This document shows positions 11,455 to 59,463 of a DNA stretch of 64,000 nucleotides, piece by piece. Below the pieces are notes generated by a model. The model was not told the origin of the DNA and did no database searches. It was given only the letters and a program-made list of their open reading frames with translations. The stretch comes from an uncultured Agathobaculum sp. (GTDB taxonomy: Bacteria > Bacillota > Clostridia > Oscillospirales > Butyricicoccaceae): NCBI RefSeq assembly GCF_934504345.1, contig NZ_CAKSVR010000006.1. One strand, given 5' to 3'. How positions within the stretch are numbered: position 1 is the stretch's first letter; the number at the start of each line of letters is the position of its first letter. Made by a program: the position numbers and the translations under genes.

Positions 11455-11531
11455 GGCGGTATAGCTTAGTTGGCTAGAGCGTCCGGTTCATACCCGGAAG
11501 GTCATTGGTTCAAGTCCAATTACCGCTACCA
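11455..11531 (+). tRNA. tRNA-Met (anticodon CAT, elongator-like; tRNA-Ile2 not excluded)
   Basis: Hand-folded cloverleaf: acceptor GGCGGTA/TACCGCT, anticodon arm TCCGG-TTCATAC-CCGGA, T loop TTCAAGT, encoded CCA. Confidence 0.9.
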
Positions 11532-11543
11532 CTTTTTTCTCTT

Positions 11544-11618
11544 GGCCCGTTGGTCAAGCGGTCAAGACACCGCCCTTTCACGGCGGTAACGGGGGTTCGA
11601 TTCCCCCACGGGTCACCA
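11544..11618 (+). tRNA. tRNA-Glu (anticodon TTC)
   Basis: Cloverleaf: acceptor GGCCCGT/ACGGGTC, anticodon arm CCGCC-CTTTCAC-GGCGG, T arm GGGGG-TTCGATT-CCCCC, CCA. Confidence 0.92.
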
Positions 11619-11621
11619 GAT

Positions 11622-11697
11622 GGAAGTTTAGCTCAGCTGGGAGAGCATCTGCCTTACAAGCAGAGGGTCACAGGTTCGAGCCCTGTAACTTCCACCA
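11622..11697 (+). tRNA. tRNA-Val (anticodon TAC)
   Basis: Cloverleaf: acceptor GGAAGTT/AACTTCC, anticodon loop CTTACAA, T arm ACAGG-TTCGAGC-CCTGT, CCA. Confidence 0.92.
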
Positions 11698-11757: not shown

Positions 11758-12506
11758 CTTTTCGGCACGCTGCTGTCCGGTGCACGCGAGGTGCGTGAGC
11801 GCTACGCCGTAACCGGGCGGCAGTCTTTTTCTCGGCACCCTTTTACTGGTGCACACGAGTTGCGTAAGCAATACGCCGTTGCCGGGCTGAGGATTTCGCC
11901 GCTTGCGAGCGGCGGGAGAACGGCGCTCCCGCGCGGGGCCTAAGAGGGCAGACAACCTACGGTTTTCCACCCTCTTAGGAAGCTCCCCTTTTCCCTTTTG
12001 GGATACCTCGGAGCGACGGAACGTTCCGTTCCTACTTAGAGGTGGGACCGAAAAAAGGAACGGCAGTACCGTTACCAGCTTGTAGGCCGCAAAGCGCCAT
12101 TCCTTTCACAGCTACGCTCAAGCCGCTAAAGCTCTGCTACACCCAGTTACGCAAAACCCGTGCAATCTGCCGCGATAACGCCGCAACAGCGCAGAAAACG
12201 TGAGCCGATACCGTTCCTTTATGCGAGTTACCTATGAAGTAGAGCCGTAAGGCTCGTTCGCGAGGTTGCCAAGGGAAAGGTAGGAGTTCAAAGAGGGAGG
12301 GAAACCGTAGGTGTTCCTCCCTTTTTGCGCCCGCCGCGCGAGCGGCCCGTTCCCGCCGTCCGCAGACGGCGAAACTCCCCAGCCCGGAAACGGCGTATCG
12401 CTAACGCAACTCGGTTGCACCACAAAACGGCTGCCGAGGAAAGGGCTGCCGCCCGGTTACGGCGTATTGCTTACGCAACTCGTGTGCACCGGAGAACGGG
12501 CTGCCG
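11758..12506 (+). repeat. Repeat family A, copy A1 (full-length, about 750 bp nested imperfect palindrome)
   Basis: Left arm 11758-12075 is the inverted repeat of right arm 12195-12506. The outer arms each carry two tandem ~66-nt units. The core is shared with 23064-23350, 29241-29706 and 41470-42147. Confidence 0.85.
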
Positions 12507-16033: not shown

Positions 16034-16888
16034 ATGAGTGCAGTAAGAATGGACGGCAAGGCGCTGTCCGCCAAGGTGCGCGGCAGCATTCTGGCGGAAA
16101 CCGAGGCGCTGAAAAAGCAGGGCATCACGCCGGGTCTGGCGGTCATCATCGTCGGCAACGACCCCGCAAGTGAAATTTATGTCCGCAACAAGGAGCGCGC
16201 GTGCGAGCAGTGCGGCTTTTACAGCGAGAAGTACGCGCTGCCCGAGGAAACCACGCAGGAGGAGCTGCTCGGTCTGATCGCGCAGCTGAACGAGAGCCCG
16301 GCCATCTCGGGTATCCTGTGCCAGATGCCGGTGCCGAAGCACATCTCCGAGCAGGCCGTTATCGATGCCATTGACCCGAAAAAGGATGTTGATGCGTTCC
16401 ATCCGGTCAATGTCGGCAAGATCATGGTCGGCAATTTCGATTTCGTACCGTGTACGCCGGCGGGCGTGATGGAGCTGCTCGACGAGTACAGCATTGATCC
16501 CAAGGGCAAGGAATGCGTGGTCGTCGGCCGCTCGAACATCGTCGGCAAGCCGATGAGTATGCTGCTGCTGCACCGTCACGGCACGGTCACCATCTGCCAC
16601 AGCCGCACGCAGGATCTCGCGGAGGTCTGCCGCCGCGCGGATATTCTGGTCGCTGCTGTCGGCAAAGCGGGCTTCATCACGCCCGATATGGTCAAGGAGG
16701 GCGCGGTCGTTATCGATGTCGGCATCAACCGCAACGCCGAGGGCAAGGTCTGCGGCGATGTGGCTCCCGAGGTGATGGAGAAGGCCTCCTATATGACGCC
16801 GGTCCCGGGCGGCGCCGGCCCGATGACCATTACCATGCTGATGAAGAATACGCTCAAGGCGGCAAAGCTCCAGCACGGCATTCAGTAA
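16034..16888 (+). CDS. folD: Bifunctional methylenetetrahydrofolate dehydrogenase/cyclohydrolase
   Basis: FolD family: GKALS..., [12 protein letters not shown] and [11 protein letters not shown]. Confidence 0.96.
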
Positions 16889-16895
16889 ACAAAAA

Positions 16896-16932
16896 CCGCC
16901 CGTATCCGGGTTGACAATCCGGATACGGGCGG
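16896..16932. terminator. 14-bp perfect hairpin after folD, flanked by an A5 run (T5 on minus); its loop contains a -35 hexamer
   Basis: CCGCCCGTATCCGG-GTTGACAAT-CCGGATACGGGCGG. The T-run is on the minus side, so it is best placed to stop leftward toxin transcription; it may also stop folD. Confidence 0.6.
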
Positions 16933-16939
16933 GTATACT
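16911..16939 (+). promoter_or_regulatory. Consensus promoter TTGACA-17-TATACT (antitoxin-like RNA 1)
   Basis: Hexamers at 16911-16916 and 16934-16939. Confidence 0.65.
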
Positions 16940-16945
16940 AAAGAT

Positions 16946-17037
16946 AACGAAAGGTGCTGCCGGTAGACGGTCAGCCCCTAAAATTGTGGAAAGAAGTAAT
17001 CGCACATGTAGGAGTGTCGGCGGTTACTTCTTTTTTG
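16946..17037 (+). ncRNA. Candidate type I antitoxin sRNA 1 (about 90 nt; ends approximate)
   Basis: Runs from the consensus promoter to the terminator AAGAAGTAATCGC...GCGGTTACTTCTT+T6. No ORF with an RBS. Its 3' part is antisense to the end of toxin ORF 1. Confidence 0.5.
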
Positions 17038-17095
17038 TTCCTAAAATACGCTCAATGAGTACGAGTATCACTACAAGTATTACGAGATATTCCAT
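17024..17095 (-). CDS. Candidate type I toxin peptide, 23 aa: MEYLVILVVILVLIERILGTKKK
   Basis: ATG at 17095 preceded by GGGGGTGG 6 nt upstream. Hydrophobic helix plus a KKK tail. The TAA stop lies inside the terminator stem. Below the ORF-track size cutoff. Confidence 0.6.
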   Translation of the reverse strand: MEYLVILVVILVLIERILGTKKK

Positions 17096-17165
17096 AGAAC
17101 CACCCCCTTGCAGGGGCAAGACTTAACCGCCTACCGCAGGCGCGGCAGCACCTTTCTTAACGACA

Positions 17166-17194
17166 AGTATAACAGAGTTCGACAGAATACGCAA
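17166..17194 (-). promoter_or_regulatory. Minus-strand promoter TTGCGT-17-TATACT (toxin 1 mRNA)
   Basis: Reverse complement of 17189-17194 and 17166-17171. Confidence 0.55.
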
Positions 17195-17204
17195 TATGGC
17201 ATAC

Positions 17205-17233
17205 TTGACAATCAAGGTGCGGGCGGGTATACT
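17205..17233 (+). promoter_or_regulatory. Consensus promoter TTGACA-17-TATACT (antitoxin-like RNA 2)
   Basis: Hexamers at 17205-17210 and 17228-17233, divergent from the toxin 1 promoter. Confidence 0.65.
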
Positions 17234-17239
17234 AAAGAT

Positions 17240-24817: not shown

Positions 24818-25019
24818 TTAAGGCAACACCGCACAATTAAAGCTGCGGCTCCTTGCGCAGGCTCCGGTCGCGCTGCCGCGGCGCTTTGTGAAAATTTTAC
24901 GTCCTGACTTTGTTGCGATTTCACGGTAATACAGCAAGTATTACCGCAAAATCGCGCCTCGTCAGTACGCAAAATTTATGCACAAATCGCTCTTGTTCAA
25001 TTATGCGGTATTGCCTTAA
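24818..25019 (+). mobile_element. Repeat family B, copy B2 (202 bp, one internal 32-nt module)
   Basis: TTAAGGCAACACCGCACAATTAAAG ... TTCAATTATGCGGTATTGCCTTAA. Confidence 0.8.
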
Positions 25020-25040: not shown

Positions 25041-26288
25041 ATGAAAAAGGACAATACGCCGGTCGATATTGACTTTGCGGAGGCGGCGGTGCCGCATTAT
25101 GCCCGCCGCGGCATCGTGACGATGTTCATGATCATGCTGGGCTTCACGTTCTTCTCGGCCAGTATGTGGGTCGGTCAGGAAATGGCCGATGGACTGGATT
25201 TTGGCGGCTTTATCACTTCCATGATCATCGGCGGCATTATTTTGAGCCTGTACACCGGCCTGCTGGGCTATGTCGGCGCGGAAACCGGCATGAGCCTTGA
25301 CCTGCTGGCACGCAAGGCGTTCGGCCTCAAGGGCTCGTACCTGCCGAGCGCGATGATCTCGTTCACGCAGATCGGCTGGTTCGGTGTCGGCATCGCCATG
25401 TTCGCGATCCCGGTCGCAAATGAACTGCTCGGCGGCAGCACGACGGCGGAGTGGGTGCTCGTTATCATCGCAGGTGCGTGCATGACGGCCTCGGCCTACT
25501 TCGGCATCAAGTCGCTGACGGCCATCAGCTACATTGCGGTGCCGCTGGTCGCTGTTCTGGGCACGGTGGCGATGGTAATGGCGGTCAAGCGCGGCGACGG
25601 CACGATGATCGACCAGTTCGCCAAGTCGAGCGGCACGCTGACGGTCATCGGCGGTGCGGGTCTGGTCATCGGCTCGTTCGTTTCGGGCGGTACGGCGACC
25701 CCGAACTTCTCCCGCTTCGCCCGCAATGGCAAGGTCGGCGCCATCACGACCGTTATCGCGTTCTTCATCGGCAACTCGCTGATGTTCTTCTTCGGCGGTA
25801 TTTCGTCGGTTTATGTCGGCGGCAACGACATTTTTGAGGTCATGATCAACCTCGGTCTGTTCTATCTGGCAATCCTGGTGCTCGGCCTCAATATCTGGAC
25901 CACCAACGACAACGCGCTGTATTCGGCGGGTCTGGGTCTGGCGAACATTTTCGGCCAGAAGAAAAAGACGATGGTGCTCATTTCCGGCATTGTCGGCACG
26001 GTGCTGTCGGTCTGGCTGTACTGGAATTTCACCGGCTGGCTGAATATCCTCAACTGCACGCTGCCGCCGGTCGGCATCATTCTGGTGCTCAGTTTCTTTA
26101 TGCACCGCGAGCAGTACAAGGACGTTGCGGTGACGGAAAATGTCAACTGGTTTGCCGTTCTCGGCGTTGTGGTCGGCGCGGTCGTGGCCAATATCGTACC
26201 GTGGGGTATCGCATCCATCAACGGCATGGTGGTCGCAGCGGTGTGCTATCTGCTTGGCAGCAAGGCCAAGGCAACACCGCACAATTAA
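25041..26288 (+). CDS. codB: Cytosine permease (NCS1 family)
   Basis: 415 aa, 12 TM spans, CodB-like throughout. The last 6 codons and the stop lie inside repeat B3. Confidence 0.9.
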   Translation: MKKDNTPVDIDFAEAAVPHYARRGIVTMFMIMLGFTFFSASMWVGQEMADGLDFGGFITSMIIGGIILSLYTGLLGYVGAETGMSLDLLARKAFGLKGSYLPSAMISFTQIGWFGVGIAMFAIPVANELLGGSTTAEWVLVIIAGACMTASAYFGIKSLTAISYIAVPLVAVLGTVAMVMAVKRGDGTMIDQFAKSSGTLTVIGGAGLVIGSFVSGGTATPNFSRFARNGKVGAITTVIAFFIGNSLMFFFGGISSVYVGGNDIFEVMINLGLFYLAILVLGLNIWTTNDNALYSAGLGLANIFGQKKKTMVLISGIVGTVLSVWLYWNFTGWLNILNCTLPPVGIILVLSFFMHREQYKDVAVTENVNWFAVLGVVVGAVVANIVPWGIASINGMVVAAVCYLLGSKAKATPHN

Positions 26289-26500
26289 AGCTGCGGCTCC
26301 TTGCGCAGGCTCCGGTCGCGCTGCCGCGGCGCTTTGTGGAAATTTTGTGCTCTGACTTTGGCTTCGGTTCCTTGCGCGAGTTCCGTCCGCGCTGCCGAGA
26401 TTTTTTGCAATACGTCAAGTATTGCTGCAAAACCGCGCCTCGTCAGTACGCAAAATTTACTCACAAATCGCTCTTGTTCAATTATGCGGTATTGCCTTAA
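26266..26500 (+). mobile_element. Repeat family B, copy B3 (235 bp, two internal 32-nt modules)
   Basis: CCAAGGCAACACCGC... ...GCGGTATTGCCTTAA. The central hairpin has compensatory changes (GCAATAC/GTATTGC). Confidence 0.8.
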
Positions 26501-29240: not shown

Positions 29241-29706
29241 GGAAACGGGAACGTGCCGCACGCGTGGCGGGCGCACAAGAGGGTAGACAACCTACGGTTT
29301 TCCACCCTCTTGTGAATCACCCCTTTTCCCTTGATTCCTAAGCCGGCGCACGGAACGGCTACGCCGTTCCTATTTGAGCTCGGGACCGAAAAAAGAGAAC
29401 GGCAGTACCGTTACCGGCTGATAGGTTCGGCTTAACGCCGCCCATTCCTCTCTCGGCTGCGCTCAAGCCGTTAGAGGTCTGCTACACTGCCTTTACGCAA
29501 AACCCGTGAAATCTGCCGCGATAACGCCGCATCAACGCAGGAAACGTGAGCCGATACCCGTTCCTTTATGCGAGTTACCTATGAAGTAGGGTCGTAAGAC
29601 CCGTTCGCGAGGTCGCCGAGGGAAAAGGGGAGCTTCCTAAGAGGGTGGAAAACCGTAGGTTGTCTACCCTCTTAGGCCCCGCGCGGGAGCGCCGTTCCCC
29701 GTTTCC
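29241..29706 (+). repeat. Repeat family A, copy A3 (466 bp, core plus inner arms, no outer 66-nt units)
   Basis: Ends GGAAACGGGAACG / CGTTCCCCGTTTCC are inverted. The inner hairpins CACAAGAGGG..CCCTCTTGTG and CCTAAGAGGG..CCCTCTTAGG mirror each other. Confidence 0.85.
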
Positions 29707-37637: not shown

Positions 37638-37758
37638 CGTGTGATCGTTAGTTGAACGAAACAGGGGACATGACGAGATCATGTCCCCTGTTTTTATACA
37701 GCAGCTATGAGAAATAGAGAGAAAGAGTAATCAAATAAACAGAAAGCAGGAAAAGTTT

Positions 37759-41469: not shown

Positions 41470-42147
41470 TCGGCAGCAGCCCGTTTCCCGGCAGTCGTTC
41501 TCCGGTGCATACGAGGCGCGTGAGCGCTGCGCCGCAGCCGGGCAGCAGCCCTTTCCTCGGCAGCCGTTCTCTGGTGCATACGAGTCGCGTAAGCGATACG
41601 CCGTTGCCGGGCGGGGGATTTCGCGCTCTGCGGAGCGCGGGAACGGTTTCCAAAAGGATAGACACCCCCTACGGTGGTTTCTATCCTCTTGGGACTCCAT
41701 CTTCCGCCCTTTTGGGATACCTCGGAGCGACGGAACGCAAGCGTTCCTACTTAGAGGTGGGACCGAAAAAAGGAACGGCAGTACCGTTACCAGCTCGTAG
41801 GCCGCAAAGCGCCATTCCTTTCACAGCTGCGCTCAAGCCGTTAACGGTCTGCGACAGTATTTACGCAAAACCCGTGCAATCTGCCGCGATAACGCCGCGA
41901 CAGCGCGGAAAACGTGAGCCGATACCGTTCCTTTATGCGAGTTACTTATGAAGTAGGGCCGCAGGCCCGTTCGCGAGGTTGCTGAGGGAAAGATAGGAGT
42001 TCAAAGAGGAAAGGAAACCGTAGGTGTCCTTTCCTTTTTGCGCTCGCGCCGCGTAGGCGCGCCCGTTCCCGCGCTCCGCAGAGCGCGAAACTCCCCAGCC
42101 CGGAAACGGCGTATTGCTTCGCAACTCGTGTGCACCGGAGAACGGCA
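41470..42147 (+). repeat. Repeat family A, copy A4 (678 bp; two 66-nt units on the left arm, one on the right)
   Basis: Aligns with A1 along its full length. Ends 2 nt from the ppk1 stop codon. Confidence 0.85.
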
Positions 42148-46528: not shown

Positions 46529-46606
46529 AGAAAGTCCCCCTCGGATTTGTCTGTCTTTCACAAGCAATGATAAACCCTCCATCTACTGGAGGGTCAAGGG
46601 ATTTTT

Positions 46607-46842
46607 CTAAGGCAACACCGCACAATTAAAGCGGCGGCTCCTTGTGCAGGCTCCGGTCGCACTGCCGCGGTGCTTTGCGGAAATTTTGTGTCCTGACTTT
46701 GGCTTCGGTTCCTTGCGCGAGTTCCGTCCGCGCTGCCGAAGTTTCACGGTAATACATCAAGTATTACCGCAAAACTGTGCCTCGTCAGTACGCAAAATTT
46801 ACTCGCAAATCACTCTTGTTCAATTATGCGGTATTGCCCTAA
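46607..46842 (+). mobile_element. Repeat family B, copy B4 (236 bp, two internal modules)
   Basis: CTAAGGCAACACCGC... ...GCGGTATTGCCCTAA. Lies between merR and the MATE gene. The merR stop codon is inside its last 4 nt. Confidence 0.8.
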
Positions 46843-47654
46843 AATTTCACCGGAATTTGCAGCTCGGTGAGGTATTGTCCCTCATCCGAGGTGAAGCCGC
46901 CGTCGATGTGCGTCACCTCGACCGAATCGCCGGTGACGGCGCCGCCAAGCCGTTCGGCCTCATCGAGCAGGTGCGTGTAGCCCTCCGCCGAGCGGGTGTG
47001 CGTGCCGCGGAAGCACAGGCTCAGCCAGTCACCGGCGGGCAGGGAGGCCGACGGACCGGTGTGGCGCTCCTCCGGCTCCACGAACACGAAGATGCCCGAG
47101 AACCGGTCAAATCTGCGCTCCAGCAGCTTTTCGCGGGCGATGGATACACCGACCTTGCCGAGGAACATCATGGGCTCCAGCCCGTGCTCACGCTCGAGGT
47201 CACGGATGGGAAATTCGAGGTTCGCATCCTGCGGGATGTCCTGCCGGAGGAATACGATCTCACGGGCGGGCAGCGTGATGCGGCGCACGGTATCGAGCAC
47301 GGCGGTGCGGGCACGCTGTAAATCGGTCAGGCGGCGCTCGATGCGGCGCTCGATGCGATGCAGCTCGTCCAGCTGACGGCGCGTGTCGTCCAGCTGCTCG
47401 CGCAGGAGCGACTCGATCACAGCCGTGTCGCGGTTCTCGAAAAAGCCGCGTATCCTGTCCAGCGACACACCCAGCGCCCGCAGATACTTGATGGTGTTCA
47501 GCCGCTCGAACTGCGCGGCGGAGTAGTAGCGGTAGCCCGTGCGCGGATGGACCCGTTCGGGATGCAGGATGCCGATGTCATCGTAAAACCGCAGTGTCCG
47601 CACCGGAATGGAGAATAATCGCTGCATTTCACCGATGGTGAACAGGTTTTTCAT
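46839..47654 (-). CDS. MerR family regulator with GyrI-like effector-binding domain (BmrR-type)
   Basis: FTIGEMQRLFSIPVRTLRFYDDIGIL HTH, a coiled-coil and a C-terminal GyrI-like domain. Confidence 0.88.
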   Translation of the reverse strand: MKNLFTIGEMQRLFSIPVRTLRFYDDIGILHPERVHPRTGYRYYSAAQFERLNTIKYLRALGVSLDRIRGFFENRDTAVIESLLREQLDDTRRQLDELHRIERRIERRLTDLQRARTAVLDTVRRITLPAREIVFLRQDIPQDANLEFPIRDLEREHGLEPMMFLGKVGVSIAREKLLERRFDRFSGIFVFVEPEERHTGPSASLPAGDWLSLCFRGTHTRSAEGYTHLLDEAERLGGAVTGDSVEVTHIDGGFTSDEGQYLTELQIPVKF

Positions 47655-52912: not shown

Positions 52913-52961
52913 GGTCTTTCTTATCTCCTCACATAGTTGTTTGGAGGTACTGCCGAGCGAT

Positions 52962-53090
52962 ACGGCGGCGGTGCTTTGCGGAAATTTTGTGCTCTGGCAT
53001 CGTTGCGCTTCCTTGCAATACACAAAGTATTGCTGCGGAACCGCGCCTCGCCAGAACGCAAACTTTACTCGCAAATCACTCTTGCCGCAT
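52962..53090 (+). repeat. Repeat family B, degenerate internal fragment B5 (no terminal repeats)
   Basis: GGTGCTTTGCGGAAATTTTGTGCTCTG...TGCAATACACAAAGTATTGCTGCGG...CGCAAACTTTACTCGCAAATCACTCTTG aligns to the B interior. Confidence 0.65.
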
Positions 53091-53213
53091 CACTCGTCAG
53101 CACCTCTGATGGTGCCGCGGATTATACGGAAACACCTGACGATATTGCAGCAATATCGTCGTTTGCCGCCGCTGCATTTCCCTCAAACGCAGCGGCGGGT
53201 CGGGTCGATGGAC

Positions 53214-57270: not shown

Positions 57271-59463
57271 TTATTCGCTGTCGGATACAGTTACAGCCTT
57301 TTCCGTGGTCTTTGCGACCGCTTTTTCCGTGGCTTTCGTCACAGCCTTGGTTCCGGTGCGGGCTACCGCCTTTTCACCGGTCTTGGCTACGGCCTTGGAG
57401 GTCGTTTTTGCAACGGCCTTCTCCGTGGTCTTTGCAACGGCCTTGGTGCCGGTCTTTGCGACGGCTTTGGTGCCGGTCTTGGTCACGGCCTTGGTCGAGC
57501 GGGTGCGCTTTGCGGGCTTGTCGGCCGCCTCGGCCTTTGCCGCTTCGATCTCGGCCTTGGTGCGGCGCTTGGCTCTCGCCTTGCCCTTGAGGAACAGCAC
57601 GCCGAAGCGCGGGATCTTGAGCGCGATGGACTGCTCCTGCCCGTGCATGGGCTTGCTGTCGGTCTTGACCTTGCCGTTGGCTATGCCGCTGCCGCCGAAC
57701 TCGGTCTTGTCCGAGGTGAATATTTCTTCGTAGGTGCCGGTGATCGGTACGCCGATGCGGTATTCCTGCTGCTCCTCCGGGGAGAAGTTGACAACGACCA
57801 CGATGTCCGAGCCGTCCTTGGCGACACGGCGGAACGCGATGATGTTGTTGCGGTTATCCTCGTGGCTGATCCACTCGAAGCCGCGCCAGTCGGTATCCTG
57901 CTCCCACAGCTGCGGAGTCGCAAGATAGAAATGGTTGAGTGCCTTGACATAGCTCTGCATCTGCTTGTGCGCCGGATAGTCCAGCAGCATCCAGTCCAGA
58001 CCGCGCTGGTACGCCCATTCGGAGAACTGGGCGAACTCGCCGCCCATGAACAGCATCTTCTTGCCCGGATGTGCGGCCATGTAGCCGTACAGTGCGCGCA
58101 GACCGCCGAACTGGTTCTCATACGGAGGCGGCATCTTGCCGATGAGCGAGCACTTGCCGTGTACGACCTCATCGTGCGAGAGCGGCAGGATGTAATTCTC
58201 GGAAAAGGCATACATGAACGAGAACGTGATCTTGTCATGCATATCCTTGCGGAAGAACGGGTCGGCCGAGCAGTAGCACAGCATATCGTTCATCCAGCCC
58301 ATGTTCCACTTGAAGTTGAAGCCCAGACCGCCGTCATAGCCAGGTTTCGTGACCATCGGCCACGCGGTGGACTCCTCCGCGATCATCAGGACGTCCGGAT
58401 GATCGGTCAGTATGTACTCGTTGAGCAGGCGCAGGAAGTCGACCGCTTCGAGATTCTCGCGTCCGCCGTGGATGTTCGGCCGCCATTCATTCTGGCGGTT
58501 GTAGTCCAGATACAGCATGGACGCGACCGCGTCTACGCGCAGGCCGTCCATGTGGAACTTCTCGATCCAGAACATTGCGGACGAGAACAGCAGGTTTCGC
58601 GTCGAGGTCTTGCCATAGTCGAACACGCGCGTGCCCCATTCCTTGTGCTCCATCTTGAGCGGATCGGCGTACTCATACAGATGCGAGCCGTCGAACTCGA
58701 CCAGACCGCAGCCGTCCTTCGGGAAGTGAGCCGGAACCCAGTCCATGATGACGCCGAGGCCGGCCTGATGCGCCTTGTCGATCAGGTACATGAGATCCTT
58801 CGGCGTGCCGTAGCGGCTGGTCGCGGCGAAATAGCCGATGACCTGATAGCCCCACGAGCCGTCGAACGGATACTCGGTCAGCGGCATGAACTCGATATGC
58901 GTGTAGCCCATTTCCTTGACATAGGGAACGAGCTCGTCCGCGAGCTGGCGGTAGGAATAAAAATTACCGTCCTCGTGCATCTTCCACGAGCCGAGATGGC
59001 ACTCGTAGATGTTGACCGGACTGGAATACGGCAAGTGGTTTTTGCGCCACTGGAGCCAGCTGTCGTCGCCCCATTCGTAGCCGCTGATATCATACGCCTT
59101 GGTGGCGTTGCCCGGGCGGGTCTCGAAGTGGAAGCCATACGGGTCGGACTTGTCGAATACATCGCCCGATTTGGCCCATACGCTGTACTTGTACGCGGTA
59201 TATTCCGCGATATTCGGAATAAATTTCTCCCAGATGCCCTGCTCGTCGCGGGTCATGTAATCGGCTTCCCGGTCCCAGCCGTTGAACTCACCCATGACCG
59301 ACACGTTCGCCGCCTCCGGCGCGTACACGCGGAACAGATATCCCTGCTCGCCGTCCTGCACGAAGGGGTGTGCGCCCATGTAGTCATAAGCTCGGCAATC
59401 CCTGCCCGAGTAGAAAAGCTCGCTGCGCTTTTCTACGGCCGGGGATGCGGATTTCTTCCTCAT
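57271..59463 (-). CDS. glgB: 1,4-alpha-glucan branching enzyme with repetitive K/A/T-rich C-terminal tail
   Basis: GH13 branching enzyme core (DWVPAHF, GLRVDAVASMLY, EESTAWP). The last ~80 aa are 8-aa repeats of KAVAKTGT type. Confidence 0.95.
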   Translation of the reverse strand: MRKKSASPAVEKRSELFYSGRDCRAYDYMGAHPFVQDGEQGYLFRVYAPEAANVSVMGEFNGWDREADYMTRDEQGIWEKFIPNIAEYTAYKYSVWAKSGDVFDKSDPYGFHFETRPGNATKAYDISGYEWGDDSWLQWRKNHLPYSSPVNIYECHLGSWKMHEDGNFYSYRQLADELVPYVKEMGYTHIEFMPLTEYPFDGSWGYQVIGYFAATSRYGTPKDLMYLIDKAHQAGLGVIMDWVPAHFPKDGCGLVEFDGSHLYEYADPLKMEHKEWGTRVFDYGKTSTRNLLFSSAMFWIEKFHMDGLRVDAVASMLYLDYNRQNEWRPNIHGGRENLEAVDFLRLLNEYILTDHPDVLMIAEESTAWPMVTKPGYDGGLGFNFKWNMGWMNDMLCYCSADPFFRKDMHDKITFSFMYAFSENYILPLSHDEVVHGKCSLIGKMPPPYENQFGGLRALYGYMAAHPGKKMLFMGGEFAQFSEWAYQRGLDWMLLDYPAHKQMQSYVKALNHFYLATPQLWEQDTDWRGFEWISHEDNRNNIIAFRRVAKDGSDIVVVVNFSPEEQQEYRIGVPITGTYEEIFTSDKTEFGGSGIANGKVKTDSKPMHGQEQSIALKIPRFGVLFLKGKARAKRRTKAEIEAAKAEAADKPAKRTRSTKAVTKTGTKAVAKTGTKAVAKTTEKAVAKTTSKAVAKTGEKAVARTGTKAVTKATEKAVAKTTEKAVTVSDSE

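Follow-up and report, generated by a model that had tools for sequence, protein, structure and literature searches.

The window, by which we mean the whole stretch of 64,000 nucleotides analysed here, has a G+C content of ~58%, encodes Obg, an EamA transporter, SpoVT and others, and is 82-88% identical over several kb to a contig of Agathobaculum butyriciproducens DSM 100391 and to a MAG contig. On this basis we take it to belong to an Agathobaculum-like organism of the Butyricicoccaceae. Five stretches within it, B1 to B5, had been predicted to form one repeat family, family B. All five were found at the coordinates originally given and can be aligned with one another along their whole length. 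They are listed below, together with one site that is empty in the window and filled elsewhere.

23493..23661, minus strand: B1, a 161-bp module-free element at 23497-23657 (GGTAAC...GTTACC) with TTAA duplications at 23493-23496 and 23658-23661; lies upstream of the gene for a 365-aa protein, with a short leader ORF on one side and a terminator-like hairpin on the other
24818..25019, plus strand: B2, a 194-bp element at 24822-25015 with one module (~24842-24881) and TTAA/TTAA flanks; begins 4 nt past the stop codon (TAA) of the 365-aa gene, with 21 nt between its end and the start codon of the permease
26266..26500, plus strand: B3, a 227-bp element at 26270-26496 with module 1 (~26290-26329) and module 2 (~26361-26399); located within the 3' end of the cytosine/purine permease gene, with flanks CCAA/TTAA, so that the duplication is not clean
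46607..46842, plus strand: B4, a 228-bp element at 46611-46838 with module 1 (~46632-46670), module 2 (~46702-46741) and CTAA/CTAA flanks
52941..53109, plus strand: B5, a hairpin of ~169 nt with the family core at 52965-53084 and outer arms GGAGGTACTGCCGAGCGATACGGC and GCCGCATCACTCGTCAGCACCTC
37720..37745, no strand: empty target (…GAGAAAGAGTAATCAAATAAACAG…), filled in the syntenic MAG contig L051

The left-end 23-mer occurs four times in the window and the right-end 24-mer five times, one of the latter being the B2 left end on the opposite strand, and neither was found in 100 shuffles. As originally claimed, the element has no coding capacity: no ORF lies inside it, and it adds only stop codons or a few C-terminal residues to adjoining genes. 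The last residues and stop codon (AAT TAA) of the permease come from B3, for example, and the TAG stop of a minus-strand MerR-family gene (46839-47654) is provided by the right-hand duplication of B4. In one metagenome contig (L093:3316-3661, compared with window 46560-46610) a different locus lies beyond the far end of B4; either recombination between copies has rearranged the region, or the contig is a chimera created at the repeat during assembly. Family B copies are also where many of the strain contigs terminate.

Several other features of the window deserve mention in their own right. The leader of the 365-aa gene (23370-23716) has three parts: at 23370-23399 a promoter-like site that is a perfect TTGACA-18-TATAAT, at 23431-23490 what may be a 19-codon ORF, with a good ribosome-binding site (MLWKNRPCGVFADPSLQLV), and at ~23664-23702 a terminator-like hairpin with a T-run. 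B1 sits exactly between the 19-codon ORF and the terminator-like hairpin, which are joined directly in the empty allele of another strain (L082), and this leader could be an attenuator disrupted or tolerated by B1. A second, unrelated dispersed repeat family is found at 11763-12506, 29267-29700 and 41496-42118, with a piece at 23200-23342; its sub-blocks of 45-140 nt occur in direct and inverted orientation, one of them as a conserved hairpin (AAGAGGGnnGAnAACCGTAGGTnnTCnnCCCTCTT), and strain contig L076 lacks part of the piece (23265-23330). This second family probably represents a further mobile or structured intergenic element, and a three-tRNA cluster (11455-11694) lies directly upstream of one of its copies. 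Two tandem-repeat regions, at 57307-57495 (57.3-57.5 kb; 12/24-nt periodic, GGTCTTTGCGACGGCcTTGGT-like) and at 16846-17820 (16.8-17.8 kb; units of ~130-177 nt spaced ~300 nt), are both probably repetitive coding sequence.

Dispersal, target sites and recent movement

Dispersal was examined by scanning one genome per species with a degenerate terminal-repeat pattern and retrieving 8-kb stretches around exact matches. The pattern matches 74 loci, which come mostly from A. butyriciproducens DSM 100391 (many contigs), A. hominis M2 and the MAG 'Butyricicoccus sp. UMGS682', with a few from other MAGs. Some MAG titles (Bulleidia, Eggerthellaceae, Bacteroides faecis) are doubtful, and L051, labelled Bulleidia, is syntenic with the window. 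When the 74 loci and the window were searched with a profile of B1-B4, 72 non-overlapping matches were obtained, 52 of them full length and 51 with sufficient flanking sequence for analysis. The window holds four full-length copies, A. butyriciproducens DSM 100391 at least 15, A. hominis M2 at least 11 and MAG UMGS682 at least 13, all per-genome counts being lower bounds that derive from the 8-kb stretches around exact matches. Two full copies were also found on predicted viral contigs, with no transposase on those contigs. The confinement to one region that the original prediction had named as the case against mobility is thus not what we see, the family being spread over many contigs in several Agathobaculum genomes.

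The element proper runs from GGCAAC to GTTGCC, with imperfect terminal inverted repeats (TIRs) of 17-21 bp (GGCAACACCGCACAATTAAAG at one end, GTTCAATTATGCGGTATTGCC at the other) that are conserved across the 51 copies, in keeping with the inverted-repeat ends first described. It measures 161-228 bp in the window and up to ~265 bp elsewhere. TTAA had been counted as part of these ends, a view that the flanks do not bear out. The 4-mers on either side are identical in 30 of the 51 copies, compared with 10.9 expected from random left/right pairing and a shuffle maximum of 19, and not one of the 51 matches over 5 bp. In 28 copies the left 4-mer is other than TTAA, and in 12 of these the right 4-mer is nevertheless identical to it (1.9 expected, p<0.0002). 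Matching pairs comprise TTAA (18), CTAA (5), TAAA, ATAA and TTTA (2 each) and TTAC (1), and base counts over the four target positions of all 51 copies are T31/C13/A7, T45, A48 and A48. Since the flanks match even where they are not TTAA, TTAA is a 4-bp target-site duplication lying outside the element. The target duplication for which a test (TTAA or TA) had been proposed does exist, but it is 4 bp of YTAA rather than TA, and TTAA is only its commonest form. Both a mariner-like TA duplication and a piggyBac-like fixed TTAA are excluded by the pairs TTTA, TAAA, TTAC, CTAA, ATAA, TGAA and CAAG, the last two of which come from related miniature elements described below.

Empty sites in near-identical strains give a direct view of insertion. 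On 22 further contigs there is a gene for a protein identical in sequence to the 365-aa one encoded between B1 and B2, and in the empty-site contigs the genes flanking B1-B3 show 98.5-98.7% DNA identity to the window. B1 is missing in L082, where the empty site is GTGTAATTTAAGGACC and the allele reads GTGTAATTTAAGGACCTCC; the filled site reads TTTAA, then GGTAAT...GTTACC, then TTAA, then GGACC, so that the TTAA duplication is clean. B2 is missing in L076, L080 and L084, with an intergenic gap of 27-28 nt compared with 226 nt when filled; this comparison is not clean, the empty site being TTAT and both B2 duplications TTAA. B3 is missing in L076 and L080, where the permease ends ...GSKAKKN* (412 aa) rather than ...GSKAKATPHN* (415 aa) as in the window, and its flanks CCAA/TTAA (CTAA in L084) are not simply derivable from the empty allele CCAAGAAAAAC. 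Presence and absence at B1-B3 occur in at least four combinations and the sites are independent: L076 has B1 alone, L084 has B3 without B2, and L082 has B2 without B1. In the other direction, L051 (84-88% identical) holds a family copy between TAAA/TAAA at a position, ~37728, that is empty in the window. The empty alleles that the original prediction proposed to look for were therefore found for B1, B2 and B3, and their presence in strains ~98.5% identical indicates that movement is recent.

One of these contigs differs further: upstream of the EamA gene, in place of the window's Obg side, L076:1-840 carries a piece of another transposase (DUF772 N-terminal domain, IS1182-like), which is a strain-specific insertion or rearrangement. 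It was considered as a partner for family B and rejected, as it lacks the family ends and does not resemble the IS5-type transposase described below; it belongs to a different element.

Copies are strongly associated with the 3' ends of genes. An ORF of at least 100 aa ends between -30 and +35 nt from the element end in 41 of the 51 copies (80%), against 21% for random positions and 39% for unoccupied YTAA sites of the same loci judged in the same way (odds ratio 6.5, p=2e-8). In 21 of the 51 the stop codon falls within the duplicated 4-mer, compared with only 21% of unoccupied sites (p=0.002). Among 50 gene ends reading into copies, the stop lies within the duplication in 23, within the element in 11 and just upstream in 16, and these genes enter without preference at the left end (28) or the right (22). 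YTAR sites are scarce in the window, at 1.7 per kb over both strands. No promoter-like or terminator-like signals above chance were found in or beside the copies. The bias probably reflects a combination of target choice and loss of harmful insertions, with the duplication restoring the stop.

IS5-type relatives and internal modules

Elements with the same ends as family B, and with a transposase between them, occur in other Clostridia. In three contigs of rumen Clostridiales MAGs (L003, L005, L025) the terminal repeat is followed by a promoter-like stretch and then by an ORF beginning MNRQMTLAEM. The one at L003:208-1282 is a 1.07-kb unit, GGCAACACCGCACAATTG...GCGGTGTTGCC between TTAA on both sides, with a frameshifted IS5-family transposase. 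When its ORFs are read through, they match NF033581 'IS5 family transposase' (NCBIfam) at 268.6 bits with a cutoff of 140, and in Pfam they match DDE_Tnp_1 (PF01609, 107.6 bits) and DUF772. Intact 325-aa relatives of this protein are very numerous in metagenomes. Eight contigs that encode one of them, P0056 (L085-L092), carry the right end ...ATATGCGGTGTTGCC followed by TTAA or TTAG, and over 1.5 kb upstream a left terminal repeat was sought but not found. In all eight the transposase is preceded by one and the same gene, of the Exo_endo_phos type and 361 aa long, and the downstream flanks differ; the P0056 mobile unit may be longer, with the Exo_endo_phos gene as passenger. A decayed copy in a Ruthenibacterium MAG (L054) has the right end GTTCAATTATGCGGTGTTGCC, identical to the family B right end at 20 of 21 positions. 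Insertion sequences with family ends were thus found in other gut and rumen Clostridia in L003, L005, L025, L054 and L085-L092.

Judged by sequence, family B shares its ends with a clade of insertion sequences of the IS5 family (IS5 group) that is common in gut and rumen Clostridia. The original prediction could not assign the family to any described one; its ends can now be assigned to IS5-family insertion sequences over the 17-21 bp that they share, and it remains correct that the family itself was not found described. A match of the termini to a known insertion sequence had also been thought to count against a MITE. The termini do match those of the IS5 family, but the MITE reading stands and the match supplies its assignment. 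Similarity to these insertion sequences ends after 17-21 bp at each end and the core resembles no insertion sequence, which excludes an origin of family B by internal deletion of one of them.

The search for a partner with matching ends, suggested from the outset, turned up such insertion sequences in these other Clostridia. In the window and the 8-kb Agathobaculum loci no transposase with family ends was found by a scan for exact end matches, which slightly different ends would escape. A partner insertion sequence in the genus would be expected to have ends GGCAAYACCGCA... and YTAR flanks. Were it absent from the genus, the family could possibly now be immobile or only occasionally mobilised.

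In other gut Clostridia the same terminal repeat also bounds further miniature elements, 34 to 161 bp long, with unrelated cores and with matching 4-mers in each case, including TGAA/TGAA and CAAG/CAAG. They were seen in L009, L012, L016, L022, L026, L028, L032, L039, L064 and L068, the shortest being 'ends-only' palindromes of 34-35 bp and the longest 161 bp. With family B included, the miniature elements of gut Clostridia that share this single IS5-type terminal repeat range in length from 34 to ~265 bp.

Within family B, length varies through modules in one arm. In the window the 32-nt module lies only inside B2, B3 and B4, and the predicted counts of 0, 1, 2 and 2 for B1 to B4 were confirmed by alignment. 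Across the loci, module 1 is a G+C-rich tandem unit of 33 nt in 0, 1, 2 or 3 copies (2 in L048, 3 in L063, with three module matches in L031 too). Module 2, ~75% similar to module 1, occupies another point of the same arm in 0 or 1 copies and is present alone in L046. The 33-nt unit was never found outside family members in the loci and the window, so that an independent repeat is excluded. At the B4 site L095 has module 1 without module 2, which indicates that module number changes in place; the unit behaves as an internal minisatellite, gaining and losing copies where it stands. In L019 a 71-bp derivative combines the left end with a single module and the tip of the right end.

Conservation of the hairpin

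As predicted, the whole element is a long hairpin. Each copy folds as a single one, in which the modules form small side hairpins, all of them on the left arm, and z-scores are -6 to -11.6 throughout: as RNA, B1 reaches -75 kcal/mol (z -11.6), B2 -87.8 (z -8.0) and B3 -96.5 (z -6.0), and as DNA B4 has z -6.5. Covariation was assessed by mapping the B1 fold onto the 51-copy alignment. Standard pairs fill 93.1% of the cells of the 68-pair hairpin over 50 distinct copies, compared with 36-42% when the pairing is slid by 1-3 columns, a percentage that is inflated by taking the structure from one member and by the relatedness of the copies, the number of changed pairs being the more robust measure. 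By that measure, changes on both sides are seen at 17 of the 68 pairs (65 cells), where shuffles give 8.8 +/- 1.7 with 0 of 500 reaching 17, and slid pairings give 3-8; the covarying stem that had been claimed is therefore real. RNAalifold alone gives 8 such pairs of 41. The double changes fall in ~8-10 different copy sets. The apical T-A to C-G swap first noted in the window (columns 144/160) is likewise genuine and common to 9 of the 51 family members, and C-G to T-A changes are seen at columns 65/207 in 12 copies and at 91/178 in 7. B1 and L023 carry a swap inside the terminal repeat (7/231), and B2 alone has several private complementary changes.

B5 had been described as a degenerate internal fragment, which it is not. 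It is a complete hairpin of ~169 nt (52941-53109; -81 kcal/mol, z -7.0) that has the family core and other outer arms. These arms, GGAGGTACTGCCGAGCGATACGGC and GCCGCATCACTCGTCAGCACCTC, pair at 19 of 24 positions, differ from the IS5-type terminal repeat, have no TTAA duplication and, besides their own locus, were unique among the sequences examined. A metagenome scan for them returned 39 human-gut contigs, all with the same single locus, where B5 is fixed, and this excludes the arms as ends of a second dispersed family (39/39 matches). In two of the 39, L104 and L126, the B5 arms close on themselves as a 48-nt palindrome. Adjoining it in L104 is a core with a third arm type, 17 of 27 positions identical to the IS5-type end, whose partner arm has changed in step; L126 stops before the position of this core. 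B5 and the L104 variant could be old immobilised copies with arms kept complementary, or products of a different process.

Plain DDE cut-and-paste needs only the ends and does not account for covariation in the core. One tentative explanation, to which we would give perhaps a minority chance, is that the functional unit is the long hairpin itself, beyond the IS5-type ends, with the complementarity of the arms actively maintained; its main support comes from the paired arms of B5 and L104. The fold might be needed for mobilisation in trans, joining both ends on extruded or single-stranded DNA, or alternatively one arm might be mended from the other by templated repair. Either cause, if true, would leave the hairpin open to the host as an RNA-level signal between cistrons.

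It should also be considered that the element may be primarily a functional structured RNA or DNA module, spread and kept for its function, with transposition as no more than the vehicle. It could, for instance, act as operon 'punctuation', a long double-stranded RNA hairpin in the 3' UTR or between cistrons that stabilises the upstream mRNA or is cut by RNase III. This idea is compatible with a MITE and draws on the extent of pairing (93% over the 50 distinct copies), on the 17 two-sided pairs spread over several copy sets, on the position of copies just past stop codons and within operons, and on the complementary arms, not of IS5 type, that B5 and the L104 variant have kept. We nevertheless regard it as unlikely. 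There is no orientation bias relative to the incoming gene, polymorphism between near-identical strains means that copies are not needed at those sites, and promoter-like or terminator-like signals do not exceed chance. Rfam has no family at the family B coordinates, with only three tRNAs in the window passing the gathering score. Compensatory changes, moreover, are common across the hairpins of REPINs, which are selfish (PMC3116915).

The REPIN comparison invites a further alternative, that of a single-strand hairpin element recognised through its folded DNA and moved by a tyrosine (HUH/Y1) transposase, like REPIN/RAYT or IS200/IS605 derivatives. A long hairpin with compensatory changes is what such elements would show, but they duplicate no target and insert beside a fixed short motif, whereas here there is an exact 4-bp duplication of variable sequence and the ends belong to DDE-type IS5 elements, which make the same duplication; we consider this very improbable. 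A local, non-mobile duplication confined to this region, as the three copies within 3 kb (23.5-26.5 kb) might suggest, can be dismissed almost entirely, since one reference genome has copies on 14 or more contigs, several species carry them, each copy has distinct flanks with a separate 4-bp duplication, and the three clustered copies differ independently among strains.

Interpretation and known systems

We conclude, with a probability of about 85%, that family B is a non-autonomous type II MITE with IS5-type ends and a 4-bp YTAA duplication. Dispersal, empty sites and target duplication all support the MITE originally proposed. In the mechanism we favour, an IS5-type DDE transposase supplied in trans would bind both ends and excise the element, and insertion through a 4-bp staggered cut at YTAA, mostly TTAA, would give the 4-bp duplication. 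YTAA includes a stop codon and is rare in this genome of 58% G+C, and insertions elsewhere in genes are presumably lost. Survivors would pile up at or just past gene stops, where the stop is restored by the duplication or replaced by one from the element. The data show the ends, the duplication, dispersal, differences in presence among strains, the match of the ends to IS5-type insertion sequences and covariation in the hairpin; mobilisation in trans by an IS5-type transposase, selection behind the 3'-end bias and any effect on host mRNA are inferences.

Agathobaculum is a common butyrate-producing genus of the human gut, and a recently mobile repeat landing on stop codons has practical consequences there. 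It breaks short-read assemblies, contigs ending inside copies; insertion alters protein C-termini, as in the permease (412 to 415 aa), and widens the B2 gap from 28 to 226 nt; and presence or absence of copies gives strain-typing markers. Family B is also a tractable system in which to ask why MITEs that are palindromic throughout conserve their fold. Our literature search found no paper linking Agathobaculum with MITEs or containing the end sequence. The family is specific to Agathobaculum and close relatives, and it is of a known kind and not a new kind of system.

Among known systems, small intergenic palindromic or modular repeats that are co-transcribed with their neighbours include Correia elements (Neisseria), ERIC (enterobacteria), and BOX and RUP (Streptococcus pneumoniae). 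BOX varies in its number of internal modules, and effects on the processing and stability of mRNA have been reported for the hairpins of Correia and ERIC. Correia elements duplicate TA and not 4 bp, and all four are unrelated to family B in sequence and occur in different hosts.

Closer in mechanism are the IS5-family elements (IS5 group) and their MITE derivatives, in which the TIR likewise begins with GG and a 4-bp duplication arises at a YTAR-type site, as in the YTAR duplications of E. coli IS5 (PMC5009759). Elements of this family with DDE_Tnp_1/DUF772 transposases have ends identical over 17-21 bp to those of family B. Unlike the IS5 group, family B has no transposase and no internal similarity beyond the ends, and its fourth target base is nearly always A (48/51) rather than A or G as for IS5. 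The transposase clade with the family ends is itself only ~46% identical to the named IS5-group elements, which are proteobacterial. REPINs of Pseudomonas and others (PMC3116915) are likewise extragenic, hairpin-forming mobile DNA with frequent compensatory changes, but they are tied to RAYT tyrosine transposases and make no target duplication, in contrast to the IS5-type ends and 4-bp duplication here. The closest described parallel for the modules is BrickBuilt, a minisatellite-bearing MITE of Porphyromonas gingivalis, which has IS5-family-like TIRs and an internal tandem repeat of variable copy number (PMC4596501). BrickBuilt consists mostly of its 23-nt repeat and makes irregular duplications (PMC4596501), whereas the repeat of family B forms only a small side branch, on one arm of its long hairpin, and the 4-bp duplication is regular.
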